Shown here piece after piece: positions 14,978 to 47,113 of a DNA stretch of 64,000 nucleotides (position 1 is the stretch's first letter; each line of letters starts with the position of its first letter). Made by a program: the position numbers and the translations under genes. The notes below the pieces were generated by a model. That model was given only the letters and a program-made list of their open reading frames with translations. It was not told the DNA's origin and ran no database searches. Source of the stretch: Spirochaetales bacterium (GTDB lineage Bacteria; Spirochaetota; Spirochaetia; DSM-27196; SLST01). The DNA lies in NCBI GenBank assembly GCA_007127335.1, contig SKZO01000066.1, forward strand, positions 199 to 64,198, in the 5' to 3' direction.

Positions 14978-15466
14978 TCAGTCGAGGCATGGCCCGACCT
15001 CCCGGCTCATCTGCAGACCGACGAAGCCGGCCTGACGGGCGGCCTCGTACGCTGCGACTGCCACCGCGTTACTCAGGTTGAGGCATCGTGCCTCGCTCAC
15101 CGTCGGAATCCTCACGATGGGACCCGTATGCGTACTGAGAATCTCCTCCGGCAATCCGTGCGACTCGTTGCCGAAGACCAGGCAGACATCGCTCGAATAC
15201 GCTACCTGCGAATAGGCGACCCTCCCACGGCTGGTGAAGAGCACCGTCTCCCGCGGATCCCTGCCAAGCAGGAAATCGGCATACGAGGCGTGGTGGCGAA
15301 CCGTCAGCAGATGCCAGTAGTCGAGTCCCGCGCGGCGAAGTGATCGATCGTCGACCCGGAAGCCGAGCGGGTGAACGAGGTGAAGAGTTGCACCAAGCGC
15401 GGCGCAGGTGCGGGCGACGTTGCCTGTGTTCTGCGGAATCTCCGGTTGGACGAGGACGATGTTCAT
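14978..15466 (-). CDS. trmL: tRNA (cytidine/uridine(34)-2'-O)-methyltransferase, SpoU family
   Basis: MNIVLVQPEIPQNTGNVARTCAALGATLHLV...LDYW and a C-terminal LNLSNAVAV knot motif. Length is 162 aa. Confidence 0.85.
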   Translation of the reverse strand: MNIVLVQPEIPQNTGNVARTCAALGATLHLVHPLGFRVDDRSLRRAGLDYWHLLTVRHHASYADFLLGRDPRETVLFTSRGRVAYSQVAYSSDVCLVFGNESHGLPEEILSTHTGPIVRIPTVSEARCLNLSNAVAVAAYEAARQAGFVGLQMSREVGPCLD

Positions 15467-15759
15467 TGCGCCTGGTTTCGCGTGAGGCAGCGTTGGAGCT
15501 TCGCGACCAGTTCGCGTCCGTCGAGCGCCGCGGCACGGATGGTGTCTGCGTCGGCCTCCGTCTGTCCTCCGTGGGGATCGGAGGCGATCAGCTCGGCGCT
15601 CGTGAGGATTCGAGTGAGCGCGTTGTTCAACTCGTGAATCGTGCTGCGGATTTCGTTCGGGGTGTCGATGGTCTGCCTCCCTTGCGGTCCGGCTCGTTGA
15701 TGTCCGGCAGGATTCCCCGGATGCTCACCGCGGGACCGTATCCGCATAGTGAGGGTCAC
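15463..15759 (-). CDS. Small protein with a histidine-kinase DHp/H-box-like segment (no ATPase domain)
   Basis: EIRSTIHELNNALTRILTSAELI resembles a HisKA H-box. The ORF overlaps the relA 3' end by 35 nt and shares an ATGA junction with trmL. The true start is uncertain. Confidence 0.35.
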   Translation of the reverse strand: MTLTMRIRSRGEHPGNPAGHQRAGPQGRQTIDTPNEIRSTIHELNNALTRILTSAELIASDPHGGQTEADADTIRAAALDGRELVAKLQRCLTRNQAQ

Positions 15760-24729: not shown

Positions 24730-26067
24730 CTACTCTCCGACGGCCGACATGAAGACCGTGAGTGGTGAGACACCGACACTCTGGACGACACGATCGCGGA
24801 TGTTCGTCGCCGGAACCCACACGAGCCGCACGCCGCCTTCGAGCAGTTGGTAGACGAAGCTCGTTGCCCCTTCAGCTCCGTCGAAGCGGAAGGAGAGCGC
24901 TCCATGATACTCCTGTCGCAGCGCGGGGCTCAGGTAGAGGCCGAGGTCGACCCTGCCGGTCGAAGAGGCCCGGGGGCTGATGGCGGTCGGTACGAGCCGC
25001 TGGTACCCGGTCCAGCTGAACTGCTGGTTCTCCAGGAGCGTGAGAGCTCCGTACGCGTCGCTCCCGAAGTCGGGTCCCTGGTCCAGCAGGCGCTGATAGC
25101 GAGCTCGCCTGCGTTCGATCTCGTTTTCCACGTATTCCTGGATGTTTCCCGGTACGCGCTGCAATGCAAGGATGTACTGTCGGCCGTCCAGGGTGTACCG
25201 AATGCTCAGTTCGTCGTTGCGCTGAAAGGTCAGCTGCAGAGACGTGCCTTCCGCGACGTATCTCCGGGAACCCGCCGGAGCAATTCTCTCATACTCGAAG
25301 ATGGTGGCGTGGTAGGGCAGAACGAGCTCGAACTGGTTGTCCTCCGGGCGCGGAAAGAAGCCGAACTCCGGCCGGAAGAGCTCGAGATCGAAGGCGCGGC
25401 TTGAGATCATGTCGAGGTAGTAGACCGGACGCCAGACGTTCTGCAACAGCAGATCGATCAGCGGATCCGTGCCCCTGCCGGTGTCCACGACCACCGTATC
25501 GTCGGTCGGATCGAAGACCTGCAGAGTGTAGCCAAAAACCCACCCCCGCTCTCCGGTCTCCGTCATCGCTTCGTACCAGTACGATACCAGTCCTTCCAGG
25601 TTCGTCCGCTCCGGCTGACGCCCGATCAGCTTGATCTGTTCGTTCTCCCGCAATCGATAGACCGTGTTGCCGGTCACGGCCCGAGGCTCGGATCGTATGG
25701 GGAGTGCGCTGCGTGTTGCTCGGGCGTGAAGCGACGCATTGCCGTCGAGAGCGGCCGCGTAGGCTGCCGCTCTCGTTGCCGCGGCCGACTCCTCGGCGTG
25801 GAGCTCGACCCGCCATCGTGCAATCTCCAGCGGCTCGGCGAGCTCCTCAGCAGAGACCCGGTAAGTGTCGGTGATATCGGACTGCGAGAGTACGGCGACG
25901 ACACTTCCCGACCGGATCACGGTTTCGTCCGGTGACCAGAGTACGACTCCAGTTCCAATGGAAGGGCTCCCGCAGGCTCCAAGGACGGCCAGCGCGGCGA
26001 TCGTGAGAACGGTGAGGTATGAAGCGGTGCGCAGACCGCGACCTCGTGGTAGCAGGGCCATCGTCAA
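24730..26067 (-). CDS. Lipoprotein with SH3b-like segment, function unknown
   Basis: Lipobox (AVLGAC). The mid-region YRLRENEQIKLIGRQ...GWVFGYTLQVF resembles a bacterial SH3 domain. The stop abuts the ABC-F start codon. Confidence 0.6.
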   Translation of the reverse strand: MTMALLPRGRGLRTASYLTVLTIAALAVLGACGSPSIGTGVVLWSPDETVIRSGSVVAVLSQSDITDTYRVSAEELAEPLEIARWRVELHAEESAAATRAAAYAAALDGNASLHARATRSALPIRSEPRAVTGNTVYRLRENEQIKLIGRQPERTNLEGLVSYWYEAMTETGERGWVFGYTLQVFDPTDDTVVVDTGRGTDPLIDLLLQNVWRPVYYLDMISSRAFDLELFRPEFGFFPRPEDNQFELVLPYHATIFEYERIAPAGSRRYVAEGTSLQLTFQRNDELSIRYTLDGRQYILALQRVPGNIQEYVENEIERRRARYQRLLDQGPDFGSDAYGALTLLENQQFSWTGYQRLVPTAISPRASSTGRVDLGLYLSPALRQEYHGALSFRFDGAEGATSFVYQLLEGGVRLVWVPATNIRDRVVQSVGVSPLTVFMSAVGE

Positions 26068-26137
26068 CTCCGTGGGGTGAATTCACTACAACCCTGACGC
26101 AAAGTCAACTGCCGCCACGGGATGTGCGACGGGGCCC

Positions 26138-26995
26138 TCAGTCGACCACGATCACGAGCCTGCCGTCGCGCAGAAGCGAACGGTTGTGCTCGGAGGCCAT
26201 GATCTGGCGGGCGTCATGCTCGGTGATCACGATGTCCGTAGGCGCGGTGCCGAATACCCCCGCCGCCTGAATCCGCAGCGGACGGATCCCGAGGCGGTCT
26301 GCGTGACCCGCGGCCTGGGGGTCGGAGGTGTACGCAGCGGCCCCCTCCCCGGCAAGGCGTTGCGGGTCCATGTGATAGGGGCCGGCGAGCAGGTGGAGAA
26401 GGCGTTGCGGCCCGCGAAGGTAGTGTATGGAGGGAAAGAGCGCCGGTTCGACCCGCGCGGCGGTGTTGGTCCCGAAGAGCGGCAGTTCGCCGGCCGCGTA
26501 GATGAGTATGCCGGTGTAGTCGGTGTGCGCGACCCAGCCGAGCACTCTCTCGATCGGGGCCGTCCGGGTATGGAAGACGAACTCGCGGGCGAGGCTTCCG
26601 TGCAGGTCGACAGAGTAGGTGACTCGGGCAGCCGTGAGATCCCGCGTAGCACGTGCGTCAACCATCGTCGCCGAACGCGCCGCGCGCTCGAGCCGGTCCA
26701 CATACTCCTCGCGTTCGCGTATCAAGGTGCCCACGGTATGCAGCGAGTCGAGCCTCACATCCGCGAGCGTGGAGAAGAGTATCTGCGGGGCGTCCCGGCG
26801 TATCGCTCGTTGCGTCTGTGAGACCGCCGCAGGGCCGGTCGCGCCTTCGGCCCCGAGCGTTCGTTCGATCGTCAGGCTCATCGTTCCCGTGCCCCAGTCG
26901 AGATGGGTGGTGGTTGTGTCGTGATCGGGCGCTGCGCCTGCGATCGTGACGAAACAGGCGATGAGGAACGTCGTCAGAGCGGTCTGCCGTACCAC
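26138..26995 (-). CDS. Lipoprotein, function unknown
   Basis: A GTG at 26995 gives (M)VRQTALTTFLIAC with a lipobox and removes the 34-nt overlap implied by the track start at 27097. No family recognised. Confidence 0.55.
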   Translation of the reverse strand: MVRQTALTTFLIACFVTIAGAAPDHDTTTTHLDWGTGTMSLTIERTLGAEGATGPAAVSQTQRAIRRDAPQILFSTLADVRLDSLHTVGTLIREREEYVDRLERAARSATMVDARATRDLTAARVTYSVDLHGSLAREFVFHTRTAPIERVLGWVAHTDYTGILIYAAGELPLFGTNTAARVEPALFPSIHYLRGPQRLLHLLAGPYHMDPQRLAGEGAAAYTSDPQAAGHADRLGIRPLRIQAAGVFGTAPTDIVITEHDARQIMASEHNRSLLRDGRLVIVVD

Positions 26996-27063
26996 GTTTC
27001 TATTCTCGGCGGGCCGCGGCGTCGCATTAGGGGAGCTTTCGCCGGAGGTACCGTCACCGGGGG

Positions 27064-28113
27064 CTACAGACGTTCGCCCAGGTAAACGCCCGCCCACTCC
27101 CAGGTCCCGTGTATCTCAGGGTCCGGCGGGAAGTGCACCCGCCTGAAGTAGAGGTACCATGTTCGAATCCGAAGCCCGCCCCAGCCATAGGTCCAGAGAA
27201 ACGCTTCGGTGCCTTCCGCATTCATGTCGACTTCACGGTCGATGCTCAGCGCGCGTGGTGTGAGGCGCAGAATGGCACCGAGGTTCCAGACCGGCATGGT
27301 GTTCGGATCGTCGAAGTCCTGTTCCCAGCTGCGAGTGAAAAAGTTCACGCCTGCCTGGTAGCGGGAGAGCGTAGCCGTATCCCGGTTCACCAGCGCCCAG
27401 GTGATCGTTCGTCTCAGGTCCTCGACCGTCGGCAGGGTCCAGTCCCTCCGGCTGTCGTAGAAGTCGACGCGCTCGCGGATCTGGCGGTACGCGTCGGGTC
27501 TGCCGGGAACATCAAGGTCGGGGTGCCGCAGCACCTGCCGGTACGCCGCGTATACCGACTCCCATTCACCGAGTAGCGCGAGGTTCTCGGCGAGACGGTA
27601 GTAGAGCAGGCCCCGGTCGACCTCGTCGCCGTACTCGTCAAGGAGCGTTCGGTAGTGCAGCACGCGGCTCTCCGGATCGGGAGAGAGTTTCACCAGTTGC
27701 TCGAGTGCGGCCTTGCGGAGCGAGATACCCCCGGACCGTACATCCGAGTAGCCCGTTACGACACGCTCGTAGTAGTAGCGGGCAAGCGCATGAGCCCCCG
27801 TCTCCATATAGCTCTGCGCGACGATGTAGAGATACAGGCCGCCGTATTTGTCCTTTGGGTTCCTCTCGACGTAGTTCGTGAGATACGCGATGAGCGGCCG
27901 CGGACCCGACTCGATAAGCAGGAATCCGGCGAGCCGTTCGATAGCTACCGCGCGGATCTGCGGATCGTCCTCAGTGGCGACGAGCCGGTACAGCTCGCGC
28001 ACTTCCGGATCAGAAGAACCGGCGAGGTAGTAATCGTCAATATTCGAGCAGCCGCCTGCGGCGATCGCCGCAGTCACGCAGGTGAGCAGAAGCGTACGCA
28101 ACCTCATGATCAT
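27064..28113 (-). CDS. Helical-repeat (TPR-like) lipoprotein, function unknown
   Basis: An internal start gives MIMRLRTLLLTCVTAAIAAGGC with a lipobox. Tyr/Leu-rich helical repeats follow (YYERVV, LLYYRLAENLALLGEWESVYAAY). Confidence 0.55.
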   Translation of the reverse strand: MIMRLRTLLLTCVTAAIAAGGCSNIDDYYLAGSSDPEVRELYRLVATEDDPQIRAVAIERLAGFLLIESGPRPLIAYLTNYVERNPKDKYGGLYLYIVAQSYMETGAHALARYYYERVVTGYSDVRSGGISLRKAALEQLVKLSPDPESRVLHYRTLLDEYGDEVDRGLLYYRLAENLALLGEWESVYAAYRQVLRHPDLDVPGRPDAYRQIRERVDFYDSRRDWTLPTVEDLRRTITWALVNRDTATLSRYQAGVNFFTRSWEQDFDDPNTMPVWNLGAILRLTPRALSIDREVDMNAEGTEAFLWTYGWGGLRIRTWYLYFRRVHFPPDPEIHGTWEWAGVYLGERL

Positions 28114-28175
28114 CGCGGAGTATAGCAGCGAGGACGATCGTTGGCAACCGGCGCCCAAATGGCTACTATGCCCCT

Positions 28176-35112: not shown

Positions 35113-37188
35113 TCACCCCTGCTCGAGCAGTCGTTCGGCGTGGGGGAGCGGGGTAGGGCGTGAGACGGCGAAGCCCTGAGCGTAGTCCACGCCAATGTCG
35201 CGCAGTATGGTCCGGATCGTGTCATTGTGAACGTACTCAGCGATCGTCTTCATCCCCATCGTGTGGCCGATGTTGTTGACAGCCTTGACCATTGCCAGGT
35301 CTATCTCGTCGTGCTCGACCTCCTTCACGAATGAACCGTCGATCTTCAGGTAGTCGACCGGCAGCCGCTTCAGATACGAGAATGACGAGAACCCGTTGCC
35401 AAAGTCGTCGAGCGCGAAGGTCGCGCCCTCCTCGCGAAGGCGTGTCACGAAGCTGATGGCCCGACTGAAGTTCTGGATCGCGCTGGTCTCAGTGATCTCG
35501 AGGCAGAAGCTCGACGGACTGACTTCGTGGGTGTCGAACATGAGCAGGAGAAAATCGAGGAGCGAGTTGTCCACGAGCGACGCGCCGCTGAGGTTCACGC
35601 ATATCACCGGTATCGGGATCTCGTGCTTCGCCGCTAGCGATACGTAACGACATGCCGCAGCCACGACCCATTTGTCGATTGAAGGCATGAGTCTGTAGCG
35701 CTCGGCAGCGGTGATGAACTCACCGGGCGAGACCAGCCCCCCGTCGGCGTCCTTGAGGCGGAGCAGAATCTCGTATTTGGGAACGTCCTCGGGCCGGGAG
35801 TCGAGAGGCACGATCTCCTGGTGGAACAGCGCGAAACGGTTCTCTTCGAGCGCTTCGGTCAGCCGTGCGATCCACTGCATCTCGCCCTTGCGCCTGAGGA
35901 ACACGTAGTCGGACGTCTTGTAGAACTCAACGGCGTTACCCCCGTGCTCCTTGACGAGAGAGCACGCATCGTCTCCCGCCGCGAGGATGTCGTTGACGCG
36001 GCTGCTTCCTGCCATGATGGGTGCCGCACCAATACTTACCGTCACGTTATAGCTGCGCTCCTGCCACACAAACTTGCGGTTCAGGTGAGAGACGAGATCG
36101 CGTGCGATCTGCGTGCCCTCGTCGAGCGAGGTGTCGAGCAGGATCAGGCCAAACTGATCGCCGCCGACTCTGCCGAGCACATGCGCCCGGTCTACGAACT
36201 CTTTGATGCCGTCCGCGGTCTGGCAGAGCAGTTCGTCGCCGGCGAGGTGCCCGCAGACTTCGTTGATCACCTTGAACTGGTCTATGTCGACGTAGAGGAA
36301 GAGGTGGGTCTGGTCGGTGCTCTCCGTTGGTTCAGCAATACGCTCGAGTCGGGTCGCGAACTCGTCACGGTTGATGAGGCCGGTAAGCGCGTCGTGACTC
36401 GCCTGGTAGCTGACGGTCTCGTTCAACCTCTTGATGTCGGTGATGTCGTGGAACGCCACGGTGAGGCCCTCGAACTCGCCGCGCTCACCCCGGATTTCGG
36501 CGACCGTCCCCTCAATGTGAATGCGCGCGCCGAGCTTGTTCTGCAGGTAGACCGACTCGAACACCCTCGCGACGGGATTCTGGGCGTCGGGCTCGACCGG
36601 GATCAGCACGGACTCCTCGCTCGTGTCCGCGATGAGCGAGATGACCTCGTTGACGTCGCATCCGCGCGCCTCCTCCTCGTGCCATCCGGTGAGCGTTACC
36701 GCGACCGGATTCATGAACTGAATCGCACCGCTCGCGTCGGTGGCAACGATCGCGTCGCCGGCGCTGCGCAGAATCGAAGAGAACAGACGTTCCTGTCGCA
36801 GGAGCTCACGTTCGACCCGGCTCTTGTAGAGGCCGATGTCGATCGTCGTGTGGAGTTCCCGTTCCTTGAACGGTTTCAGGACGTACCCGACCGGCTCGGC
36901 GATCTTCGCGCGCTGTATCGTGGACTCGTCCGCGTACGCCGTGAGGAAGATGACCGGAATCCGGTGTTGTTGGCGTATCTCCGTGGCGGCGTTCACGCCG
37001 TCGGTGCTTCCGGACAGCATGATGTCCATCAACACGATGTCGGGCAGCTCGGCCGCTGTGATGCTGAGCGCTTCCTCAGCGTCGGAGGCGAGTCCTACGA
37101 CCTCGTACCCAAACCTCTCGAGGCGGCGCTTGAGATCGAGAGCGATGATTCTCTCGTCTTCCACGACGAGAATCCGGTCTTCAGCCAT
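35113..37188 (-). CDS. Response regulator with REC-PAS-GGDEF-EAL domains (c-di-GMP turnover)
   Basis: REC domain (ILVVEDE...IVLMDIML...LKPF). PAS domain (DAIVATDASGAIQFMNP). GGDEF domain with the variant motif GGDQF (nt 36151..36165). EAL domain (YEILLRL, EITE, DDFGNGFSS, KIDGSF). Confidence 0.9.
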   Translation of the reverse strand: MAEDRILVVEDERIIALDLKRRLERFGYEVVGLASDAEEALSITAAELPDIVLMDIMLSGSTDGVNAATEIRQQHRIPVIFLTAYADESTIQRAKIAEPVGYVLKPFKERELHTTIDIGLYKSRVERELLRQERLFSSILRSAGDAIVATDASGAIQFMNPVAVTLTGWHEEEARGCDVNEVISLIADTSEESVLIPVEPDAQNPVARVFESVYLQNKLGARIHIEGTVAEIRGERGEFEGLTVAFHDITDIKRLNETVSYQASHDALTGLINRDEFATRLERIAEPTESTDQTHLFLYVDIDQFKVINEVCGHLAGDELLCQTADGIKEFVDRAHVLGRVGGDQFGLILLDTSLDEGTQIARDLVSHLNRKFVWQERSYNVTVSIGAAPIMAGSSRVNDILAAGDDACSLVKEHGGNAVEFYKTSDYVFLRRKGEMQWIARLTEALEENRFALFHQEIVPLDSRPEDVPKYEILLRLKDADGGLVSPGEFITAAERYRLMPSIDKWVVAAACRYVSLAAKHEIPIPVICVNLSGASLVDNSLLDFLLLMFDTHEVSPSSFCLEITETSAIQNFSRAISFVTRLREEGATFALDDFGNGFSSFSYLKRLPVDYLKIDGSFVKEVEHDEIDLAMVKAVNNIGHTMGMKTIAEYVHNDTIRTILRDIGVDYAQGFAVSRPTPLPHAERLLEQG

Positions 37189-37732: not shown

Positions 37733-38875
37733 CTATGCGAACTTGTCGAAGTAGATCCTGTCTTCCGACATGTCGAATTTTCTCATGACGGCCATACAGG
37801 CGTCAAGCATACCGGGGCTGCCGCAGAGATAGCCCTCGAGCGGGCTGCTGCGGTCGATCTGGTCGGTGAGGTAGGAGGCAAGCACCTCCGTGATGAGCCC
37901 GGTGGGGCCGGTCCATTCGTCCTCCTCCTGCGGTTCGCTGAGTGCCGGCACGAAGTGGAACTTCTCGTACTCTCCGTCGAGCTCGTTGAGCCAGTCGAGG
38001 TAGAACATGTCCGCCTTGGTTCTCGCTCCAAAGAAGTACCAGACCTCGCGGGTCTCGATCTCGCCGGTCTCGATCATGTGCTGGAAGATGCCCTTGAACG
38101 GCGCCATTCCGGACCCCCCTGCAACGCAGATCATCGTCGCACCGGTGTCCTTGACGCCGAACTCCCCAAAGGGGGCGATAACCTTCATCCGTTGTCCTTC
38201 CTGAAGGTGCTCGTGGACGTAGGTCGTCACGATCCCCCCCGGCACGAGCCGGACGAGGAACTCGAGGTGATTCCTGTCGCTCGGCGGAGAGCTCATCGAA
38301 TAGGCTCGCTGCGTGGGGGCACGTACCTTTCCGTACGGCGGAACTTCGATCTGTCCGTACTGCCCGCAGGAGAACGATATCTCTTTCCCCTCCGGCAGCT
38401 TCACGTAGACTTCCTTGATATCGTGCGTGACGTCACGAACACGCTCGATGACTCCGTCAAACTCCTGGACGTTGAACAGAGCCTCAGGGATCTCGATCTC
38501 CACATTGTCCTTCACCTTGATCTGGCAGGAGAGCCGAACGTTCTGCTCGATCTCCTCCTTCTCGAGGTACGGGATCTCGGTCGGCAGATGCGGACCGACG
38601 TCGCTTTTCACCTTGACCTTGCAGGCGCCGCAGCTGCCGCGCCCGCCGCAGGCGCTCGGCACAAAAATACCGCTCTCGGCAAGCGTCTGGAGCATCGGCG
38701 CACCGCCCTTGATCTCGAGCTTCCGTTTGCCGCTGTTGATGTCGATCACCAGATCGCCGTAGTTGTTGACGATCCTGTCGGTGATCGTTATCAGCGCTCC
38801 CAGGACCGCGCTGATCAACCCTATGGAAAGCGGTGCTACGAGGGCCTGTACGATCGCTGGTGCGTTCTCCATCAT
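37733..38875 (-). CDS. nqrF: Na+-translocating NADH:quinone oxidoreductase subunit F-like
   Basis: N-terminal TM helix, 2Fe-2S ferredoxin Cys pattern (ACGGRGSCGACKV...RLSCQ), an FAD-binding RAYSMSS-type motif and a GGSGMAP NAD(H) motif. Confidence 0.9.
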   Translation of the reverse strand: MMENAPAIVQALVAPLSIGLISAVLGALITITDRIVNNYGDLVIDINSGKRKLEIKGGAPMLQTLAESGIFVPSACGGRGSCGACKVKVKSDVGPHLPTEIPYLEKEEIEQNVRLSCQIKVKDNVEIEIPEALFNVQEFDGVIERVRDVTHDIKEVYVKLPEGKEISFSCGQYGQIEVPPYGKVRAPTQRAYSMSSPPSDRNHLEFLVRLVPGGIVTTYVHEHLQEGQRMKVIAPFGEFGVKDTGATMICVAGGSGMAPFKGIFQHMIETGEIETREVWYFFGARTKADMFYLDWLNELDGEYEKFHFVPALSEPQEEDEWTGPTGLITEVLASYLTDQIDRSSPLEGYLCGSPGMLDACMAVMRKFDMSEDRIYFDKFA

Positions 38876-38882
38876 CGTCCTC

Positions 38883-39473
38883 CTACTGCACCTGGAGCAT
38901 GCCGCCGAACCCGATGAAGGCCATCGCCATGAACCCGATGATGATCATGGTGATGCCCGCTCCCTTGAGCCCCGGGGGCACCGGCGCCTTCTCGACCTTC
39001 TTGCGTATGGCGCTGAGGGCCATGATCGCGAGCCACCAGCCGAGTCCGCTCCCGAGTCCGTAGACCACCGACTGGATGAAGCTGTAGTTGCGGATCTCCA
39101 TGAACAACGATACGCCGAGGATCGCGCAGTTGACCGTGATCAGCGGGAGGAAGATACCGAGGTTCATGTAGAGCGTCTGGCTGACCCGGTCGATGATCAT
39201 CTCGAGCATCTGGACGACCGCGGCGATCACGATGATGAACACGATGTAGCGGAGGTACACGAGGCCCAGCGTCTGGAGCAGCTGCAGTATGAGCCAGTTC
39301 ACCGCCGTCGTGACGGTGAGGACCATCGTGACGGCGAGCCCGAGGCCGTTCGAGCTCTTCATGTCCTTCGAGATAGAGATGAAGGAACACATACCAAGAA
39401 AGTTTGCCAGGAGTATGTTGCTCGTGAAAATCGAGGCAAACAGCAGTGAAAACGGGGTGATAGCCGGGGTCAT
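38883..39473 (-). CDS. nqrE: NQR subunit E-like
   Basis: FLGMCSF, LGIFLPLITVNCAILG, VYGLGSGLGW and VPPGLKGAGITMI. These are Nqr-type rather than RnfA-type signatures. Confidence 0.9.
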   Translation of the reverse strand: MTPAITPFSLLFASIFTSNILLANFLGMCSFISISKDMKSSNGLGLAVTMVLTVTTAVNWLILQLLQTLGLVYLRYIVFIIVIAAVVQMLEMIIDRVSQTLYMNLGIFLPLITVNCAILGVSLFMEIRNYSFIQSVVYGLGSGLGWWLAIMALSAIRKKVEKAPVPPGLKGAGITMIIIGFMAMAFIGFGGMLQVQ

Positions 39474-40087
39474 GCTGGCGCTCCTTCGCGGTTCATTGCG
39501 GCCTTGCCCACCCAGATGATGATCCCGAGCAGGAAGAACGCGCTCGGTGGCATGACCATGATCGTCCAGGGAACGAAGGCGTCGGGCAGAATCTGGAATC
39601 CAAACAGCGTGCCGAAGCCGAGCAGCTCACGGAAGACGGCGATCACCATCAGGACCCCCATGTAGCCAAGACCGCTAGTCACTCCGTCCCACAGGCTCGG
39701 AATCGGATCGTTGCTCTGCGCAAAGGCCTCCGCGCGTCCCATGATGATGCAGTTGGTGATGATCAGGCCGACGTAAGGTCCGAGGTTGCGGCTGATTTCC
39801 GGCAGGTACGCCTTCAGCACGATATCGACGATGATGACGTAGAACGCGATGATGAGCGTCTGGACCATCATCCGGACCTTCCGCGGCATAAACTTCTTCA
39901 GAAGCGATACGGTCAGGTTGCTGAATCCCGTCACGAAGGTCACGCCGATCGTCATGATCGCCGTATTCGTGAGCAGGTTCGTCACCGCCAGCGCCGAGCA
40001 GATGCCGAGCACCTGCATGAAGATGGGGTTGCTCGTCCAGAGGTTGTTCTTCAGGATCGCCCCTGGCCTCGTATCGACGTCGCTCAT
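39470..40087 (-). CDS. nqrD: NQR subunit D-like
   Basis: VLGICSALAVT and LKAYLPEISRNLGPYVGLIITNCIIMGRAEAFA closely match the NqrD pattern. Confidence 0.9.
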   Translation of the reverse strand: MSDVDTRPGAILKNNLWTSNPIFMQVLGICSALAVTNLLTNTAIMTIGVTFVTGFSNLTVSLLKKFMPRKVRMMVQTLIIAFYVIIVDIVLKAYLPEISRNLGPYVGLIITNCIIMGRAEAFAQSNDPIPSLWDGVTSGLGYMGVLMVIAVFRELLGFGTLFGFQILPDAFVPWTIMVMPPSAFFLLGIIIWVGKAAMNREGAPA

Positions 40088-40716
40088 ACCTCTCCTCCTG
40101 AAGCAAGCTGCGCCGCAAGCTCCTCGAGCCGTGCGCGGATCTCCGGCGACCGGAACTGCTCAACCGTACGGTTGATGATCGACTGCATCGCATTGCTCGT
40201 TGCAGTCGCCCCGGTGATCCCGTCTACGATTCCCCGCTCCGGATCGGCCTCGCCGGCGCGTACCGTGATGCCGTCGTCCGGAATACGCTGGCTCTCGAAC
40301 TGCTCCTTGAACCATGGCTCGTTGATCCGTCCCCCAAGCCCGGGCGTCTCGTTGTCGTCGACGATCTCTATCCCGACGAACGTCTGAATGTCGGCGGTGA
40401 CGGCGAGGAAGCCGAAGATGCCGCCCCAGAGACCTGATCCGCTCATCTCCTTCGCGTACACGGTACGACCGTCTATCCGTCCGGCGAAGAGTCCTTCCTC
40501 TTCGTCGGAAGCGATCCTCGCGAACTCCTCCCGGATCTCCTCGACCGTGGTTGCCTCCACTCCCATCGCCGAGAGCACTGCGCTCTGACGCGCAATCTCC
40601 TCATTCAGGCGGACGCGTTCGATCGTCGCCTGGTTCGTCATGGAGAGCAGGAACACAAAGGCGAAACTCACGATGAAGATGAACACAACCGTATAGAGGG
40701 TGCCTTCCTTGTTCAT
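40084..40716 (-). CDS. nqrC: NQR subunit C-like (FMN-binding)
   Basis: Start at the ATG at 40716 (MNKEGTLYTVVFIFIV..., a TM anchor). Carries ETPGLGG and the covalent-FMN motif DGITGATATS. The 210-aa length is shorter than Vibrio NqrC. Confidence 0.85.
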   Translation of the reverse strand: MNKEGTLYTVVFIFIVSFAFVFLLSMTNQATIERVRLNEEIARQSAVLSAMGVEATTVEEIREEFARIASDEEEGLFAGRIDGRTVYAKEMSGSGLWGGIFGFLAVTADIQTFVGIEIVDDNETPGLGGRINEPWFKEQFESQRIPDDGITVRAGEADPERGIVDGITGATATSNAMQSIINRTVEQFRSPEIRARLEELAAQLASGGEV

Positions 40717-41696
40717 GCTTTTGCCCCTTCTCTGGACGGCGCCGGCTCGCGGCTCGGCGCCTTTTTCGCCGGCTTCTTCTTCCGTTTGGGCTTGGGCATC
40801 AGCTCGTCGAGCAGGCTTGCGAAGGTATTGCCGAGCAGGATTCCAAAGCTCGTGCCCTCCGGGAAACCGCCGAAGTTGCGGATGAGAATCGTCGTTCCGC
40901 CTATGATCAGGCCGTAGAGCCACTGGCTCCCGGGTTTGTTCGGTCCGCTCACCGGGTCGGTGGACATGAAGACCGCGACGTAGAGGATGCTCCCGCTCAT
41001 CATCGCGAGGTGCGGCACCATCTCAGAGAGGCCCGTGAAGTAGAAGACCGTCTGCAGCAGCAGGGCCGAGAGAAAGGTCGACGCGATGAGCCGCCACTGC
41101 GCGGTCCTGGTGGCGATCAGGTACACCGCGGCGAGCAGGATGAGCCAGACGGCGCTCTCACCCATGCTGCCCATCCGGAAGCCGAAGAAGAGCTGCCAGA
41201 ACCCGACCGACTCGGTTGCGCCGTCTGCGAGAAACCCGAGTGGGGTCGCGCCGGTGAGCGCGTCAATGCCGAAAAGGTTGCGCACGAACCCGGGCACACG
41301 AGGCTCAACCCACCCTCGCTGCGTGAGCGTGGGGAAGCTTATATAGACAAAGAGCCGCCCGGTGATAGCCGGGTTGAAGATGTTCCGCCCGAATCCCCCG
41401 AAGACCTCTTTCCCGATCGCGACGGCGAATATGATGCCGATCGCCGCGACCCAGAACGGGACGAGCGGCGGCAATGCGAGGCCGTACAGGAGGCAGGTGA
41501 CGAGCACCGCCTCGCTGACCTTTTTCCCTCTCGCGCGCTCGAAGATCCACTCCGTCGCAATGCCAAGTACGAGCACGAGCGCGTTTACCGCTAGAACCCG
41601 CCAACCGTACAGGTAGGTGGCGAATACCAGCAATACCAGCAGGGTTCCAACCACCCGTCGCATGATCTGCTGTTTCTGGAAGAGTTTCTCAATCAC
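40713..41696 (-). CDS. nqrB: NQR subunit B-like (short form)
   Basis: GKEVFGGFGRNIFNPAITGR, the FMN-threonine motif DALTGATPLG, and STDPVSGP...IRNFGGFPEG. The start is GTG at 41696 or ATG at 41663. The track's extension to 42410 is antisense to the PNPOx gene. The C-terminus is a Lys/Pro-rich tail. Confidence 0.85.
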   Translation of the reverse strand: MIEKLFQKQQIMRRVVGTLLVLLVFATYLYGWRVLAVNALVLVLGIATEWIFERARGKKVSEAVLVTCLLYGLALPPLVPFWVAAIGIIFAVAIGKEVFGGFGRNIFNPAITGRLFVYISFPTLTQRGWVEPRVPGFVRNLFGIDALTGATPLGFLADGATESVGFWQLFFGFRMGSMGESAVWLILLAAVYLIATRTAQWRLIASTFLSALLLQTVFYFTGLSEMVPHLAMMSGSILYVAVFMSTDPVSGPNKPGSQWLYGLIIGGTTILIRNFGGFPEGTSFGILLGNTFASLLDELMPKPKRKKKPAKKAPSREPAPSREGAKA

Positions 41697-41751
41697 ACGG
41701 CCCCCCAAAAAAGCCCTGGTCTGAGCGTCAGTCGTACCATACCATCGGTCA

Positions 41752-41785
41752 ATGGATACCCGCAAATCGATACTGCGGTATCCAT
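41752..41785. promoter_or_regulatory. Inverted repeat (candidate operator or RNA hairpin) in the nqr / PNPOx-pdh divergent intergenic region
   Basis: ATGGATACCCGCA (41752-41764), a 9-nt spacer AATCGATAC, then TGCGGTATCCAT (41774-41785). That is 12 paired positions with one bulged C. A perfect TATAAT follows on the plus strand at 41792-41797. This is the most AT-rich stretch of the window. Confidence 0.3.
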
Positions 41786-41985
41786 TAGCAGTATAATCAT
41801 GAATGGATTGGTCGCAAAGACTTTCTGCATCATACCCGCACGTCGGCCGGTGATCAAACGGTTGGGAATCATGCATTGCAAATCGGGGTCGAATTATTAC
41901 ATTGTAGGGATCGCAAGCGCAACGACCACTGCAAACCAGACTCCGGCCGACCGGGCCGACTGCGCTTCCACAGGAGGAGAAGGAG

Positions 41986-42438
41986 ATGGACTCGAGATCG
42001 ATGCTGGATACCGTGGAGCGCGTCCTTGAGCGGTCCAGGATAGCGGTCCTCGCGACGGTCGATCCGGAAGGGCGACCGCACATGCGCTGGATGACACCGG
42101 GGCTGGTGCGAGGGCGCGACCGTTTCCTGTACGCGGTGACTTCGCCTGAGTTCCACAAGACCGATGAAGTGCGGGGCAACGCCGCCGTCGAGTGGATGAT
42201 CCAGAGCCGGAGTCTGGATGAGATCGTGACGATCCGCGGCACGATGCGTATCCTCGACAATCCGTCGGTGAAGGCGGAGGTGCTCGAAGCGATCGGGGGG
42301 CACCTCTCGACGTTCTGGAAGATGAACCCCGATGAAGGCAAGATGGTCGTGCTCGAGACCGAGATGAACGAGATCTGGTACACGAAGCCGACGACGGGCG
42401 AGCGGCACACGGTTACGCTGGAGGAGAGTGATGGCTGA
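41986..42438 (+). CDS. Pyridoxamine 5'-phosphate oxidase-like FMN-binding protein (general stress protein 26-like)
   Basis: RIAVLATVDPEGRPHMRWM and a split-barrel-type pattern. A strong RBS (GGAGGAGAAGGAG) precedes the ATG. Overlaps pdhA by 11 nt. Confidence 0.7.
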   Translation: MDSRSMLDTVERVLERSRIAVLATVDPEGRPHMRWMTPGLVRGRDRFLYAVTSPEFHKTDEVRGNAAVEWMIQSRSLDEIVTIRGTMRILDNPSVKAEVLEAIGGHLSTFWKMNPDEGKMVVLETEMNEIWYTKPTTGERHTVTLEESDG

Positions 42439-43447
42439 AGTCGAGGTACAGACGGTGAAGGGAGTCGGCAAGCACAAGAAGGAGTTTCTCCTGCCGCTGC
42501 TTCGCCAGATGCAGTTGATCCGGCGATTCGAAGAAAAGTCGGCGCAGATGTACGGGCTGAGGAAGATTGGGGGATTCTGCCACCTCTACAACGGTCAGGA
42601 GGCGGTCGCCGTCGGGGCGCTGAGCGCTCTCGACCTGACGAAGGACTACGTGCTCACCGCGTACCGCGATCACGGCCACGCGATCGCCGCGGGAATGGAT
42701 CCCAAAGCGGTCATGGCGGAGCTGTATGGAAAGATAACCGGCTGCTCCCGGGGCAAGGGCGGTTCGATGCACATGTTCGACGCGCAGCGACACTTCCTTG
42801 GAGGCAACGGCATCGTTGGCGCCCAGATCCCGATGGCCACAGGGGTGGCATTCGCCCAGATGTACCGGCAACAGGTCATGGACCGAAAGGATACCGGTGT
42901 CACGCTCTGTTTCTTCGGCGACGGAGCCATCCATCAGGGAGCCTTCCACGAGTCACTCAACCTTGCGGCGGTCTGGAACCTGCCGGCCGTCTACATCGTT
43001 GAGAACAACCAGTTCGGGATGGGGACCGCCGTCAAGCGGGTCTCCGCCGTAGAGGACTTTGAGGTCAAGGCGACCGGCTATCGGATGCCCGGTATCACGC
43101 TGGACGGGATGAACGTCATCGCAATGCACGATGGCATCAAGGCCGCGGTCGCGCAGGTCAGGGAGGATCGCACCCCGGTTCTCATCGACGCGAAGACGTA
43201 CCGGTACAAGGGGCATTCCATGAGCGATCCTGCGAAGTACCGCAGCCGCGATGAGCTCGAGGCGTACCAGGAGCAGGACCCCATCCTCATCCTCAAGGCT
43301 GTCATGAGCGACGCCGGGATGATCGACGACGAGGAGTACAAGCAGCTCGACGACGAGATCAGGATGATCGTCCAGGAGGCGGTCGATTTTGCCGAGTCGA
43401 GCGACGAGCCTGAACTCGCCACCATGTACGAAGACATCTACGTGTAG
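42428..43447 (+). CDS. pdhA: Pyruvate dehydrogenase E1 component, alpha subunit
   Basis: GFCHLYNGQEAVAVG, YRDHGH, the TPP motif GDGAIHQG...ENNQFGMGT, and YRYKGHSMSDP. Confidence 0.9.
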   Translation: MMAEVEVQTVKGVGKHKKEFLLPLLRQMQLIRRFEEKSAQMYGLRKIGGFCHLYNGQEAVAVGALSALDLTKDYVLTAYRDHGHAIAAGMDPKAVMAELYGKITGCSRGKGGSMHMFDAQRHFLGGNGIVGAQIPMATGVAFAQMYRQQVMDRKDTGVTLCFFGDGAIHQGAFHESLNLAAVWNLPAVYIVENNQFGMGTAVKRVSAVEDFEVKATGYRMPGITLDGMNVIAMHDGIKAAVAQVREDRTPVLIDAKTYRYKGHSMSDPAKYRSRDELEAYQEQDPILILKAVMSDAGMIDDEEYKQLDDEIRMIVQEAVDFAESSDEPELATMYEDIYV

Positions 43448-43461
43448 GAAGGGGCGTCGAT

Positions 43462-44442
43462 ATGGCAGAGATCAGTATCAGAGATGCGTTGAACCAGGCT
43501 CTTGACGAGGAGATGGCTCGTGACGAGCGCGTATTCATCCTCGGTGAAGAGGTCGGCGAGTACAACGGCGCGTACAAGGTGACCAGAGGTCTGCTCGACA
43601 AATACGGCGTCCCGCGGGTCCTCGACACCCCCATCGCCGAGCTCGGATTCACCGGCCTTGCGGTGGGAGCGGCGACCGTCGGGTTGCGGCCGGTCGTCGA
43701 ATGGATGACGTTCAATTTCTCGCTGCTCGCGCTCGATCAGGTCATCAACAACGCGGCGAAGATGCGGCACATGTCCGGTGGTCAGCTAAGTGTACCAATC
43801 GTCTTCCGGGGGCCGAACGGACCCGCCGAGTATCTGTCGAGCCAGCACTCCCAGGCGCTCCAGAGCCTGTACGTGCACGTTCCGGGGCTCAAGGTCGCCG
43901 CGTACGCGACCCCGTACGACGCGAAAGGACTGCTGAAGACCGCGATCCGCGACGACAATCCCGTCGTCCTGCTCGAGAGCGAGCTCGCCTACGCGTGGAC
44001 CGGTGAGGTCCCCGACGAGGAGTACACGATACCCCTCGGGAAGGCCGACGTGAAGCGCGAAGGGAGCGAGGTAACGCTCATCACGTATTCCAAGCCGGTT
44101 CGCATGGTCATGGAGGCGGCCTCCGAGCTCGAGAAGCTCGGTGTCGACGCCGAGGTAGTAGACCTGCGGTCGTTGCGACCGCTCGATGAAGAGGCGATCT
44201 ACGCTTCGGTGCGCAAGACGAATCGTGCCGTCGTCGTGGATGAGTCCTGGCCGGTCGCGAGTTTCGGCAGCCACGTGGCGTGGCTGATCAGCAGGAACTG
44301 CTTTGACATGCTCGACGCCCAGGTCGAGCTCGTGTCGAGCGAGGACGTTCCCATGCCGTACAATCACACGCTCGAGCTCGCCGTGCAGCCGAGTGTAGAG
44401 AAGATCGTCGCAGCCGCAAAGCGCGTCCTGTACATGGAGTAG
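43462..44442 (+). CDS. pdhB: Pyruvate dehydrogenase E1 component, beta subunit
   Basis: ERVFILGEEVGEYNGAYKVTRGL, DTPIAELGFTG and VVDLRSLRPLD. Confidence 0.9.
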   Translation: MAEISIRDALNQALDEEMARDERVFILGEEVGEYNGAYKVTRGLLDKYGVPRVLDTPIAELGFTGLAVGAATVGLRPVVEWMTFNFSLLALDQVINNAAKMRHMSGGQLSVPIVFRGPNGPAEYLSSQHSQALQSLYVHVPGLKVAAYATPYDAKGLLKTAIRDDNPVVLLESELAYAWTGEVPDEEYTIPLGKADVKREGSEVTLITYSKPVRMVMEAASELEKLGVDAEVVDLRSLRPLDEEAIYASVRKTNRAVVVDESWPVASFGSHVAWLISRNCFDMLDAQVELVSSEDVPMPYNHTLELAVQPSVEKIVAAAKRVLYME

Positions 44443-44450
44443 GAGTCGAT

Positions 44451-45716
44451 ATGGCAGAGAAAGTACTGATGACCGCCCTCTCACCAACGATGGAGGAGGG
44501 TACGATCGTGAGCTGGAACAAGAAGGAAGGCGACTCCGTTGCCGCGGGCGACCTGCTGTGCGAGGTGGAGACCGACAAGGCCACGATGGACTACGAGTCG
44601 ACCCAGGAGGGGGTGTTACTCAGGATCGTGAAGGCCGAAGGGACGTCGTCGAGGGTTGGCGACACGATAGCGATTCTCGGAGAGCAGGGCGAGGACATTG
44701 ACTCGCTTCTTCAGGAGTCGGCGGATGGTTCGCAGCCCTCCGGTCCCGAAGGCGAGAGCGCCGCTGAGGCTGCCGCGCCCGAGGCGCCTGAGGCTGTCGC
44801 GCCCGAGGCGCATGAGGCTGCCGCCCGCTCCCGCGACTCGGCCGGGGCGCAGGGCGACGGGGCGCGTGTGAAGGCGTCGCCGCTTGCGCGAAAGATCGCC
44901 TCCGAACGCGGCATCGATCTCAGCCGGGTCTCCGGGAGCGGACCGGCAGGTCGAGTCGTGAAGGCCGACGTCGAAGGCTTCACCGGCGCACCCGCCGAGG
45001 CTGCGACTCGCGGCGCCGCTGCTTCGGCGGCCGGCGAAAACGTCACCGTGCCGGTGAGCGGCAAACGAGCAGTGATTGCTCGACGGCTCGCGGAAAGCAA
45101 GTTTTCGGCACCCCATTACTATCTGAAGAGCAGCGTGAGGATGGACGGCGCCATGCAGGCGCGGAAGGACCTGAACGCGGAGGCATCTGAGAAAGTCGGG
45201 TTCAACGCGTTCCTGATGAAGTTCGCCGCGGAGGCGCTGAGGCGACATCCGCAGGTCAACGCGAGCTGGCAGGGCGACCACATTCTGCAATTCGGATCAG
45301 TAGACATCGGGCTCGCGGTCGATCTGGGCAACGGCCTGATCACGCCGATCGTGCGGAACTGTGGAAACAAGGGTATTGTAGACATCGACGCCGAGCTCAA
45401 GGACCTCGTCGCGAGGGCCGGGAGCGGCAAGCTCCAACCGGAGGAGTACACCGGGGCTACCTTCACGATCAGCAACCTCGGGTCTTTCGGAATCGAGGAG
45501 TTCACCGCGATCATCAACCCGCCCGGATCGGCAATTCTCGCGGTTGGCGAGATCGCGAAGACTCCGGTCGTAAACGACGGCGACGAGCTCGAAATAGCGC
45601 AGATCATGAAGATGACGCTCTCATGCGACCACCGGGTGATCGACGGAGCCGAAGGGGGGCGCTTCCTCTACGAGTTGAAGCGCATCGTCGAGAATCCGGT
45701 ACGCGTGCTGTTCTAG
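44451..45716 (+). CDS. pdhC: Dihydrolipoyllysine-residue acetyltransferase (E2)
   Basis: Lipoyl domain (CEVETDKATMD), Ala/Pro/Glu linker, subunit-binding domain (ASPLARKIASERGIDLSRVSGSGPAGRV) and catalytic core with DHRVIDGA. Confidence 0.9.
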   Translation: MAEKVLMTALSPTMEEGTIVSWNKKEGDSVAAGDLLCEVETDKATMDYESTQEGVLLRIVKAEGTSSRVGDTIAILGEQGEDIDSLLQESADGSQPSGPEGESAAEAAAPEAPEAVAPEAHEAAARSRDSAGAQGDGARVKASPLARKIASERGIDLSRVSGSGPAGRVVKADVEGFTGAPAEAATRGAAASAAGENVTVPVSGKRAVIARRLAESKFSAPHYYLKSSVRMDGAMQARKDLNAEASEKVGFNAFLMKFAAEALRRHPQVNASWQGDHILQFGSVDIGLAVDLGNGLITPIVRNCGNKGIVDIDAELKDLVARAGSGKLQPEEYTGATFTISNLGSFGIEEFTAIINPPGSAILAVGEIAKTPVVNDGDELEIAQIMKMTLSCDHRVIDGAEGGRFLYELKRIVENPVRVLF

Positions 45717-45724
45717 GAGGAGAT

Positions 45725-47113
45725 ATGGCGAGCTACGATTTCGATCTAGTGGTGATCGGTTCCGGGCCCGGAGGGTACGTCGCGGCAATCCGTGCGAGTC
45801 AGCTGGGGCTGAAGTCGGCGATCATCGAGAAGGAGAAGCCCGGCGGGGTCTGTCTGAACGTGGGATGTATCCCCAGCAAGGCACTCATCCACCAGGCGGA
45901 GATCGTCTCCGGCCGCAAGGAGCTTGAAGAGCTCGGGTTCAAGGTCGACGATTCCGGGTTCGACTACCGGAAGGTCTTCAAGAAGAGTCGGCAGGCGGCA
46001 GACAGGCTGAGCAAGGGCGTGAGCTCTCTGATCAAAAAGAACGAGATCGAGTACATCGAGGGCACTGCGAAGCTGAGCGGCGCCCACGAGGTCACCGTCG
46101 ACGGCGGGAAGAAGATCACCGGCAGGTTCGTGCTGATCGCGACCGGCAGTCGTCCCCGGGAGATACCCGGGTTCGAGTTCGATGAGAAGCAGGTGCTCTC
46201 GTCGACCGGGGCGCTCTATCTCGAAGAGCTGCCGGAGAGCCTTATCATCCTTGGCGGCGGCTACATCGGGATGGAGTTCGCTCACGTGATGAATGCCTTT
46301 GGCGTTGATGTGACGGTGGTTGAGATGCTCGAACGTATCATCCCGACCGCGGACCCCGAGGCGGTGGCCGTGTTCGAGAAGGACATACGGCGCCGCGGCG
46401 TGCAGATCATGACCGGGTCGAAGGCGGAGAAACTCACAAAGGGCAAGAACGGCGTGAAACTCGAGGTATCCGGCAGGGACGGGAAGAAGACGCTCGAGGC
46501 CGAGAAACTCCTGGTCAGCGTCGGGCGTGCGCCCAACAGCGAAGGGCTTGACCTCGAGAAGGTTGGTGTGAAGACGGAGAAGGGCTTCATCAAGGTTGGG
46601 GACTACTACCAGACCGATGTCGCCGGTGTCTACGCCATAGGGGATGTCGTCGCGACGATGCAGCTCGCGCATGTGGCGAGCAAGGAGGGCGAGATAGCCG
46701 TTGAGCATATGGCCGGGCATGGACCGGAGAACGCCGTTGACCCGGACCTGATCCCGGCGGCGATCTATACCGAACCGCAGATCGCGAGCTTCGGGCCGAC
46801 CGAGGACCAGGCGAAGGAGCGGGGTCTCGCGTTCAAGAAGGCGGTCTTCCCGTACCGGGGCGCCGGCAAGTCGGTCGCGACAGGCAAGCCCGACGGCCTC
46901 GTCAAGATCCTCTACGCGCCGGAGACCCATGAGTTTCTCGCCGCGCATATCGCAGGAAGCAATGCGACCGAGATCATCCACGAGTTGCTGCTCGGCAAGC
47001 GCAGTGAACTGCTGCCGGAGGACATCGCGACGATGATCCACGCGCATCCCACTCTCTCTGAGGCGGTGATGGAAGCGGCGCGTGTCGCCGAAGGGTGGGC
47101 GATCCACTACTGA
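45725..47113 (+). CDS. lpdA: Dihydrolipoyl dehydrogenase (E3)
   Basis: Start at the ATG at 45725 (MASYDFDLVVIGSGPGGY). Redox-active disulfide GGVCLNVGCIPSK and C-terminal HAHPTLSE. Confidence 0.95.
   Translation: MASYDFDLVVIGSGPGGYVAAIRASQLGLKSAIIEKEKPGGVCLNVGCIPSKALIHQAEIVSGRKELEELGFKVDDSGFDYRKVFKKSRQAADRLSKGVSSLIKKNEIEYIEGTAKLSGAHEVTVDGGKKITGRFVLIATGSRPREIPGFEFDEKQVLSSTGALYLEELPESLIILGGGYIGMEFAHVMNAFGVDVTVVEMLERIIPTADPEAVAVFEKDIRRRGVQIMTGSKAEKLTKGKNGVKLEVSGRDGKKTLEAEKLLVSVGRAPNSEGLDLEKVGVKTEKGFIKVGDYYQTDVAGVYAIGDVVATMQLAHVASKEGEIAVEHMAGHGPENAVDPDLIPAAIYTEPQIASFGPTEDQAKERGLAFKKAVFPYRGAGKSVATGKPDGLVKILYAPETHEFLAAHIAGSNATEIIHELLLGKRSELLPEDIATMIHAHPTLSEAVMEAARVAEGWAIHY

Follow-up and report, generated by a model that had tools for sequence, protein, structure and literature searches.

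The Rnf and Nqr complexes are the two textbook redox-driven sodium pumps, and in the usual account Nqr arose from Rnf. Here, we describe an Nqr-like gene cluster in a 64-kb stretch of DNA (64,000 nucleotides, hereafter the window) from a bacterium of the Spirochaetales. Open reading frame (ORF) calling over the window places five tightly packed ORFs on the minus strand, named here subunits B, C, D, E, and F (B-C-D-E-F), and a sixth gene, named here X, follows them on the same strand. The features of the locus, in the direction of transcription, are as follows.

41857-41829 and 41817-41790, minus strand: two sigma-70-like promoter matches upstream of B, consensus matches only
41696-40713, minus strand: subunit B (nqrB-like), 327 amino acids (aa) from GTG 41696, or 316 aa if the start is ATG 41663; PF03116
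40716-40796, minus strand: Lys/Pro/Ala-rich C-terminal tail of B, residues 301-327, predicted to be disordered
40716-40084, minus strand: subunit C (nqrC), 210 aa, N-terminal membrane anchor and FMN_bind domain
40087-39470, minus strand: subunit D (nqrD), 205 aa; PF02508
39473-38883, minus strand: subunit E (nqrE), 196 aa; PF02508
38875-37733, minus strand: subunit F (nqrF), 380 aa, membrane anchor followed by Fer2, FAD_binding_6, and NAD_binding_1 domains
37723-37244, minus strand: gene X, 159 aa, starting 9 nucleotides (nt) past nqrF; a family without annotation

The five-gene core is as a first-pass annotation of this DNA had described it. The ORFs bear out its coordinates, its three ATGA-type overlaps of 4 nt (40713-40716, 40084-40087, and 39470-39473), the 7-nt gap between E and F, the 210-aa length of NqrC, and every motif quoted there, namely VLGICSALAVT; FLGMCSF and VPPGLKGAGITMI; KEVFGGFGRNIFNPA; CGGRGSCGACKV...LSCQ; and the tail PKPKRKKKPAKKAPSREPAPSREGAKA of B. 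The intergenic region upstream of B, put at about 290 base pairs (bp), measures 289 bp (41697-41985) and is followed by a divergent operon from 41986. By describing a five-gene module, that annotation overlooked X, a sixth conserved gene, and no terminator-like site was detected between nqrF and X. The GTG start of B at 41696 agrees with the N-termini of homologues ('MIEKLFQKQ.IMRRV') and with a G-rich ribosome-binding stretch 5-10 nt upstream. A 565-aa ORF (40713-42410) was considered as a longer NqrB and ruled out, as homologues begin at 'MIEKLFQKQ' and the extra part overlaps the intergenic region with the promoter-like sites. The sigma-70-like scan gave four matches over the whole scanned stretch, against 1.4 expected by chance, and an Rfam scan of the leader and operon gave no credible regulatory RNA.

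The cluster was also correctly reported to be without nqrA, rnfC, and rnfB. A Pfam scan of 36 ORFs of the window contains no NqrA, RnfC, RnfB, or ApbE, and a search of its six-frame translation with Escherichia coli (E. coli) RsxC and RsxB gives no match, even at E<=10. The first-pass annotation had proposed a survey of related genomes for the BCDEF-only arrangement. A profile of B run against species-representative genomes returns 80 related loci; B is the first gene of the cluster in all 80, and no NqrA- or RnfC-like gene adjoins it in any of them. RnfC and RnfB homologues are likewise absent from the cluster in related loci. These loci come from Spirochaetota; from Thermotogota (Fervidobacterium); from Fusobacteriota (Propionigenium maris and other Fusobacteriaceae); from Bacillota (Oscillospiraceae, Tissierellia, Peptostreptococcales, Acidaminobacter, Schnuerera, and Fusibacter); and from two Desulfobacterota-type metagenome-assembled genomes (MAGs). 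The sizeable co-oriented genes that precede B in some loci are unrelated to NqrA or RnfC and include those for G6PD, a Na+/H+ exchanger, a Na+:alanine symporter, a hydrogenase-like protein, a sugar kinase, and a topoisomerase. The A-less arrangement is conserved and is not an accident of one genome, and the branch spans at least four phyla.

The first-pass annotation had named prior documentation of the BCDEF-only arrangement as a ground for refutation, and the arrangement is indeed already documented. A-less nqrBCDEF clusters were reported for Thermotoga thermarum and T. lettingae in 2014 (PMC4148951) and for Clostridium ultunense, and also P. lettingae, in 2018 (PMC5924567). The cluster of Miniphocaeibacter halophilus is given as nqrB-F (PMC9558581), and the genome note of 'Ca. 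Izimaplasma' ZiA1 lists NqrBCDEF (PMC6256511). The Thermotoga and C. ultunense whole-genome analyses report no NqrA gene (PMC4148951, PMC5924567), and several carrier genomes also hold a complete rnf operon (PMC4148951, PMC5924567, PMC9558581). The present cluster shares with these published cases the gene order and the lack of NqrA, and the relatives of its B include proteins from Fervidobacterium, Marinitoga, and Schnuerera. The published descriptions list five genes and do not mention X, whereas the present case is from Spirochaetota and includes it; in a Schnuerera-type subclade of the A-less clusters, X is truly absent. The searched passages of a 2025 Rnf/Nqr review and of a 2014 evolution paper do not discuss the A-less branch, and full-text searches of an incomplete library found no mention of a conserved sixth gene after nqrF. 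What this analysis adds is that the conserved unit is B-C-D-E-F-X, in which X is an unannotated family.

The product of X is a soluble, acidic protein (isoelectric point 5.4) with no predicted membrane segment and, in this genome, no Cys. It has no family match in Pfam, NCBIfam, or PHROG. Its AlphaFold model is a confident α/β fold (predicted local distance difference test, pLDDT, 91) with no significant match among solved structures. No homology was detected between X and any Rnf or Nqr subunit, and an hhalign comparison with RsxC gives a probability of 0.2%, that is, no relationship. A profile search with X returns about 1,570 homologous proteins. The 120 homologues listed are 147-162 aa long and without a Pfam domain, and the named ones are all 'hypothetical' or 'uncharacterized'; Marinitoga, Thermosipho, Fervidobacterium, and Petrotoga are among the matches listed. 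Identity is 64-94% among the Spirochaetota homologues, and the mean column identity across four phyla is about 50%. The invariant positions are M1, G17, G23, F24, G26, G87, P92, K100, H126, F133, G136, and G138, and the extreme N-terminus is also conserved.

The position of X is conserved along with its sequence. Among the 62 loci that extend at least 520 bp beyond F, a hidden Markov model (HMM) of X places the gene right after F in 55, and these span Spirochaetota, Thermotogota, Fusobacteriota, and Bacillota. The median gap between F and X is 15 nt, and 50 of 58 loci have a gap of at most 30 nt. A reverse look-up that started from X homologues recovered B-C-D-E-F-X in each of three cases: Spirochaeta thermophila DSM 6578 (Spith_0300), Marinitoga aeolica, and a 5.46-Mb genome contig.

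Conservation of the cofactor and ion-path residues was counted over 67-81 family sequences and mapped to the residues of Vibrio cholerae (V. cholerae). The best NCBIfam model for C is nqrC (97.7 bits against a cut-off of 144), and its flavinylation motif TGAT places the modified residue at T171, a position at which all 75 sequences have Thr or Ser. D exceeds both nqrD equivalog cut-offs (246 versus 235 and 245.8 versus 244.85) and matches V. cholerae NqrD at 193.7 bits and RnfE at 148. On the D side, the intramembrane [2Fe-2S] cluster is ligated by Cys30 and Cys113, neither of which varies in any of the 76 sequences. E matches V. cholerae NqrE at 189 bits and RnfA at 158, reaches 219.6 against an nqrE equivalog cut-off of 247.55, and has Cys29 and Cys116 invariant in 73 of 73 sequences. 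F scores 266.2 bits with the nqrF model (cut-off 295) and matches V. cholerae NqrF at E=3.6e-63; conserved in it are the [2Fe-2S] cysteines of the ferredoxin domain (C76, C82, C85, and C117) and, in the FNR-like domain for flavin adenine dinucleotide (FAD) and reduced nicotinamide adenine dinucleotide (NADH), the motifs RAYS and GGSGMAP and the C-terminal Phe379. The non-Cys cofactor positions are invariant or show conservative swaps only (Thr/Ser, Asp/Glu, and Phe/Tyr). Among NqrB to NqrF, D alone reaches its NCBIfam equivalog cut-offs, and B, C, E, and F fall below theirs.

Judged by these sequence comparisons, C, D, E, and F each resemble Nqr more than Rnf, and the first-pass assignment of the cluster as Nqr-type rather than Rnf-type stands for these four subunits. 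For B it is only half right, as B reaches the rnfD cut-off and fails those of NqrB. The cluster is like the V. cholerae Na+-NQR in its NqrF input module and in the ligands for the D/E [2Fe-2S] cluster, the flavin mononucleotide (FMN) of C, the FMN of B, and the riboflavin of B. The acidic residues of the ion path, which are associated with Na+ translocation, are kept as well: NqrB-E144, D346, and D397 have conserved counterparts in B, as do NqrD-D133 in D and the glutamate NqrE-E95 in E. It differs in that no NqrA is encoded in the cluster and a conserved gene X is added. Since the cofactor sites are conserved, the input path and the two membrane crossings appear intact. Cation pumping by B-C-D-E-F is a reasonable inference, and the cluster can be predicted with high confidence to be a functional member of the A-less branch.

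The classification of B depends on which part of the protein is compared. With the TIGR01946 rnfD model, B scores 207.5 bits against a cut-off of 207.05, and its residues 7-300 cover profile positions 9-320 of 327. It stays below both NCBIfam NqrB cut-offs (214.6 versus 414 and 195.2 versus 349.9), and these models align to it only from model position 112 or 121 onward. In pairwise comparison, B gives 137 bits and 32-33% identity with V. cholerae NqrB and 119 bits and 26-31% identity with RnfD. Its alignment to V. cholerae NqrB is confined to NqrB residues 129-410, so that in the comparison with both proteins that the first-pass annotation had recommended, the full RnfD is covered and only the C-terminal ~285 columns of NqrB. 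The AlphaFold model of B (pLDDT 82, falling below 70 from about residue 300) agrees with this. Foldseek aligns the predicted structure over 319-325 columns with RnfD chains of 318-349 residues, but over only 281-292 columns with V. cholerae NqrB chains of 380-412 residues. The target-normalised TM-score is 0.74-0.80, over 314-325 columns, for the three best RnfD chains (8ahx_D, 9eri_D, and 7zc6_D) and 0.56-0.62 for NqrB. Unlike V. cholerae NqrB (about 400-415 aa), B is without the first roughly 95-110 residues, including the helices AH-I and AH-II, and it is like RnfD (about 310-350 aa) in length and architecture, with no NqrB N-terminal extension.

The relatives of B are built in the same way. 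The nearest homologues are all from Spirochaetota, are 294-402 aa long, and have a similar basic tail. An exhaustive search of cluster representatives with B gives lengths of mostly 290-365 aa for roughly the 35-40 nearest clusters; proteins with the canonical NqrB-type extension at the N-terminus (about 400-420 aa) are not seen until the score drops below about 160 bits. The first-pass annotation had described a short NqrB that lacks an N-terminal segment; the length and the missing region stand, but neither a truncation nor a start-codon problem does, since B is collinear with the whole of RnfD and its relatives all measure about 295-365 aa. The short B is normal for its family, with an RnfD architecture and a slightly more NqrB-like sequence. 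In a rough neighbour-joining tree the B family forms its own group, at distances of 1.32 to V. cholerae NqrB and 1.39 to Acetobacterium woodii RnfD; these distances are saturated, and no branching order was inferred for it.

The flavin sites of B are retained. The flavinylation Thr for the covalent FMN is T151, which is kept across the family, and all seven riboflavin ligands of V. cholerae NqrB are kept in 81 sequences, with T162, G198, N200, N203, A205, F342, and D346 of NqrB corresponding to T67, G103, N105, N108, A110, F243, and D247 of B. The Lys-rich tail, pointed out in the first-pass annotation, was considered as a special feature and rejected as one. The C-terminus is basic across the family, with a tail that varies in length (about 6-45 aa), and also in Vibrio NqrB. 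The tail of B is probably not diagnostic, because it is a variable low-complexity extension of a generally basic C-terminus.

In V. cholerae, the quinone lies at the rim of NqrB, where it contacts L138, G141, N156, F159, and F160; two N-terminal amphiphilic helices of NqrB (L26, A29, and L33) close over it, and any residue but Gly at position 141 would sterically block it (PMC10643135). The argument of the earlier papers on A-less clusters, that NqrA holds the quinone site, is out of date. In B, the counterpart of G141 is I46, and among 81 family sequences this position holds Ile 54 times and Val 13 times. F159 and F160 are replaced by V64 and L65, the residues of the quinone pocket are not conserved, and the N-terminal amphiphilic helices are absent from the B family. 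By this alignment, B lacks a Vibrio-type quinone pocket. An electron acceptor other than the Vibrio-type quinone, as the first-pass annotation had suggested, is plausible because both the residues of the Vibrio quinone site and the N-terminal helices are missing.

The energetics of the two known pumps limit what this acceptor may be. With NADH as the donor, the forward direction of Rnf and Nqr pumping needs an acceptor more oxidising than the NAD+/NADH couple. For an enzyme fed by NADH, the redox potential of the acceptor would accordingly have to lie above that of NADH, and NAD+ would not be possible as the acceptor. The cluster resembles the Rnf complex (RnfCDGEAB; A. woodii, Clostridium tetanomorphum, and Azotobacter vinelandii) in its four-subunit membrane core, but it has neither RnfC, the NAD+-reducing output, nor RnfB, the ferredoxin input, and carries an NqrF-type NADH dehydrogenase at the input position.

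On balance, and with moderate confidence, we read the locus as a six-gene operon, B-C-D-E-F-X, of a separate and widespread Rnf/Nqr branch in anaerobic fermenters, in which the electron exit would be neither a Vibrio-type quinone nor RnfC and X would be the likely exit partner. In the proposed mechanism, F would oxidise NADH and pass electrons from its FAD through its own [2Fe-2S] cluster to that of D/E. From there, they would cross the membrane to the FMN of C and on to the FMN of B, and would then return towards the cytoplasmic face, to the riboflavin of B. Export of Na+ (or H+) would be driven by this electron flow, as in Na+-NQR. X may dock on B at its cytoplasmic face, the place taken by NqrA or RnfC in the known complexes, and once docked may present or form the acceptor site. 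The genetic linkage of X and its strong conservation are what the data show; that it is a subunit and acts at the electron exit is an inference, made with moderate to low confidence. A bolder proposal is more tentative and is offered as a possibility that may well prove wrong: that X is a new cytoplasmic output subunit and that B-C-D-E-F-X is a third functional class of Rnf/Nqr enzymes, next to the ferredoxin:NAD+ class (Rnf) and the NADH:quinone class (Nqr), namely a Na+-motive NADH oxidase for a soluble or non-quinone acceptor.

Several observations weigh against a role for X at the exit and against a non-quinone acceptor. Seven loci have B-C-D-E-F with no adjoining X and with unrelated genes downstream; five of the seven belong to Bacillota, among them Schnuerera, the genus that includes C. 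ultunense. Either the core can do without X, therefore, or those genomes encode it at another locus. X has no conserved Cys and no known cofactor motif, the Cys of its 'LPCPF' motif being Ser in this genome, and for this reason a redox role is unsupported. A quinone could also bind B in a manner different from that in Vibrio. Finally, in Vibrio, apbE and nqrM sit downstream of nqrF (PMC12174285), so X could equally be a maturation factor; by this analogy, such a role is a serious alternative.

The most substantial of the competing explanations builds on that analogy. It holds that B-C-D-E-F suffices as a minimal NADH:(mena)quinone oxidoreductase, that quinone binds B at a site different from that of Vibrio, that NqrA is dispensable, and that X serves in assembly, maturation, or regulation. 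The same account assigns NqrA neither a cofactor nor a catalytic role (PMC12174285), the quinone of the Vibrio enzyme sits on NqrB and not on NqrA (PMC10643135), and the maturation genes downstream of nqrF and the relatives that have BCDEF without X fit this explanation as well. It has to contend with the absence of the helices that close over the quinone, with the Ile or Val at the G141 counterpart, and with a conservation of X that exceeds the usual expectation for an accessory factor. Thermotogota, fermentative Spirochaetota, Fusobacteriota, and Clostridia are mostly reported to be without respiratory quinones. We consider a minimal quinone reductase of this kind rather unlikely. An even simpler account of X, that it is a genomic passenger, a co-transcribed small protein with no functional tie to the pump, would explain why it has no detectable cofactor motif or homology to Rnf/Nqr subunits and why it is missing from some clusters. 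Its position, orientation, and close spacing are nevertheless kept over four phyla in which the other flanking genes all differ, and the three X homologues that were looked up independently all sit in the same cluster, which makes a passenger quite improbable.

Two further explanations leave X aside and relocate the exit or the missing subunit. Electrons from NADH might be exported one way, passing D/E and then the periplasmic FMN of C before reaching an extracytoplasmic acceptor or reductase, with B and X secondary. Partial NQR/RNF-like one-way systems were described by Méheust et al. in 2021 (PMC8238504), and no cytoplasmic acceptor module is recognisable in the present locus. Those systems are, like the present cluster, partial Rnf/Nqr derivatives with an NAD(P)H-binding module and flavinylated subunits, but their definition rests on a single protein in which the NqrB/RnfD membrane domain is joined to an NAD-binding one (PF03116-PF00175), they occur mainly in Actinobacteria and the candidate phyla radiation, and they have no D or E described (PMC8238504). 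The present B contains PF03116 only, PF00175 is in the separate subunit F, and the core is complete. The return path is also kept, with the FMN-threonine of B and the seven riboflavin ligands retained in 81 sequences, and no conserved extracytoplasmic reductase gene lies beside the cluster in the loci examined. One-way export is improbable on these grounds. The other explanation is that of a canonical six-subunit enzyme with the gene for its missing subunit lying apart from the cluster: either nqrA at another locus, which the first-pass annotation had offered as one of two options, or RnfC and RnfB borrowed from a separate rnf operon. The complete rnf operons of several carrier genomes (PMC4148951, PMC5924567, PMC9558581) would make such borrowing feasible. 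The published whole-genome analyses contain no nqrA (PMC4148951, PMC5924567), none lies near any of the 80 loci, and B is without the NqrB-specific N-terminal region, so that an nqrA elsewhere is unlikely. In addition, F already takes the input position of RnfB, and the conserved extra gene is X and not a homologue of A or C. This explanation as a whole is very improbable.

This third branch would take in NADH through NqrF, and it is missing both known exits, namely RnfC to NAD+ and the quinone pocket of NqrB. Genes labelled 'nqrB-F' have stood in genome annotations for over a decade without an explanation. The spread of the branch over at least four phyla of anaerobes, with every cofactor site kept, argues that it is functional, and if it is, its acceptor marks a real gap in the understanding of fermentative energy conservation. 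A third class of pump would give quinone-free fermenters among the Thermotogota, Spirochaetota, Fusobacteriota, and some Clostridia a way to conserve energy when NADH is re-oxidised. X is a concrete candidate for the missing piece; should it be an assembly factor only, the finding would amount to an improvement in annotation. Cultured carriers with complete genomes exist, including Spirochaeta thermophila, Fervidobacterium, and Marinitoga.

The genes that flank the six-gene unit vary among lineages. The divergent operon in the window (41986-47113, plus strand) encodes a 150-aa PNPOx-like FMN-binding protein followed by the E1α, E1β, E2, and E3 subunits of pyruvate dehydrogenase (PDH). Only about 20 close relatives have the PNPOx-like gene and E1α within some 3 kb upstream of B, which makes the pairing of this NADH producer with the NADH-oxidising pump lineage-specific. 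The PNPOx-like FMN protein was considered as a partner of the pump and rejected, as it travels with the PDH operon and is confined to the same close relatives. On the other side, a gene for a response-regulator/PAS/GGDEF/EAL protein (35113-37188, minus strand) begins 55 nt past X, and no terminator-like site was detected in the gap. Two complete spirochaete genomes (5.5 and 5.05 Mb; L001 and L002) have the whole arrangement: PNPOx-PDH, divergent B-C-D-E-F, a 150-154-aa gene without a Pfam match, and the same kind of response-regulator/PAS/GGDEF/EAL gene, which there too comes after X. This arrangement hints at co-transcription of X with a cyclic diguanylate (c-di-GMP) signalling protein.

In eight other spirochaete loci (L019, L022, L027, L028, L031, L033, L037, and L038), a divergent gene adjoining B encodes a Cys-rich membrane protein of the RseC/MucC family (PF04246). 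A connection exists in E. coli between RseC and the SoxR-reducing Rsx system, which is of Rnf type. RseC/MucC-like genes were considered and set aside, as the window contains none. Fervidobacterium thailandense (L044) carries, ~2.9 kb downstream of X, an RsxB/RnfB-like Fe-S ORF (15242-15574, plus strand; E=1e-20 against RsxB of E. coli), with no other Rnf genes nearby. A Na+/H+ exchanger gene lies near the cluster of a Fusobacteriaceae MAG (L050, 6038-7510, plus strand), a Na+:alanine symporter gene near that of Propionigenium maris (L057, 6428-7873, plus strand), and an ApbE flavin transferase gene about 5 kb downstream in the 5.46-Mb genome contig (L086, 12557-13606, plus strand). These three neighbours fit a sodium cycle and flavinylation.

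Elsewhere in the window, a 1,129-aa ORF (7628-11017, minus strand) is an unusual fusion of 2-oxoacid dehydrogenase E1 α-like and β-like parts (E1_dh, Transket_pyr, and Transketolase_C) with a lipoyl domain and a C-terminal KAS III (FabH-like) domain; it may feed an acyl primer into the synthesis of fatty acids or polyketides. Four further ORFs (445, 319, 364, and 476 aa) at 24730-28158 and 62485-63915, both on the minus strand, have no Pfam match at E<=1e-5 and a coding-like GC content at third codon positions (GC3).

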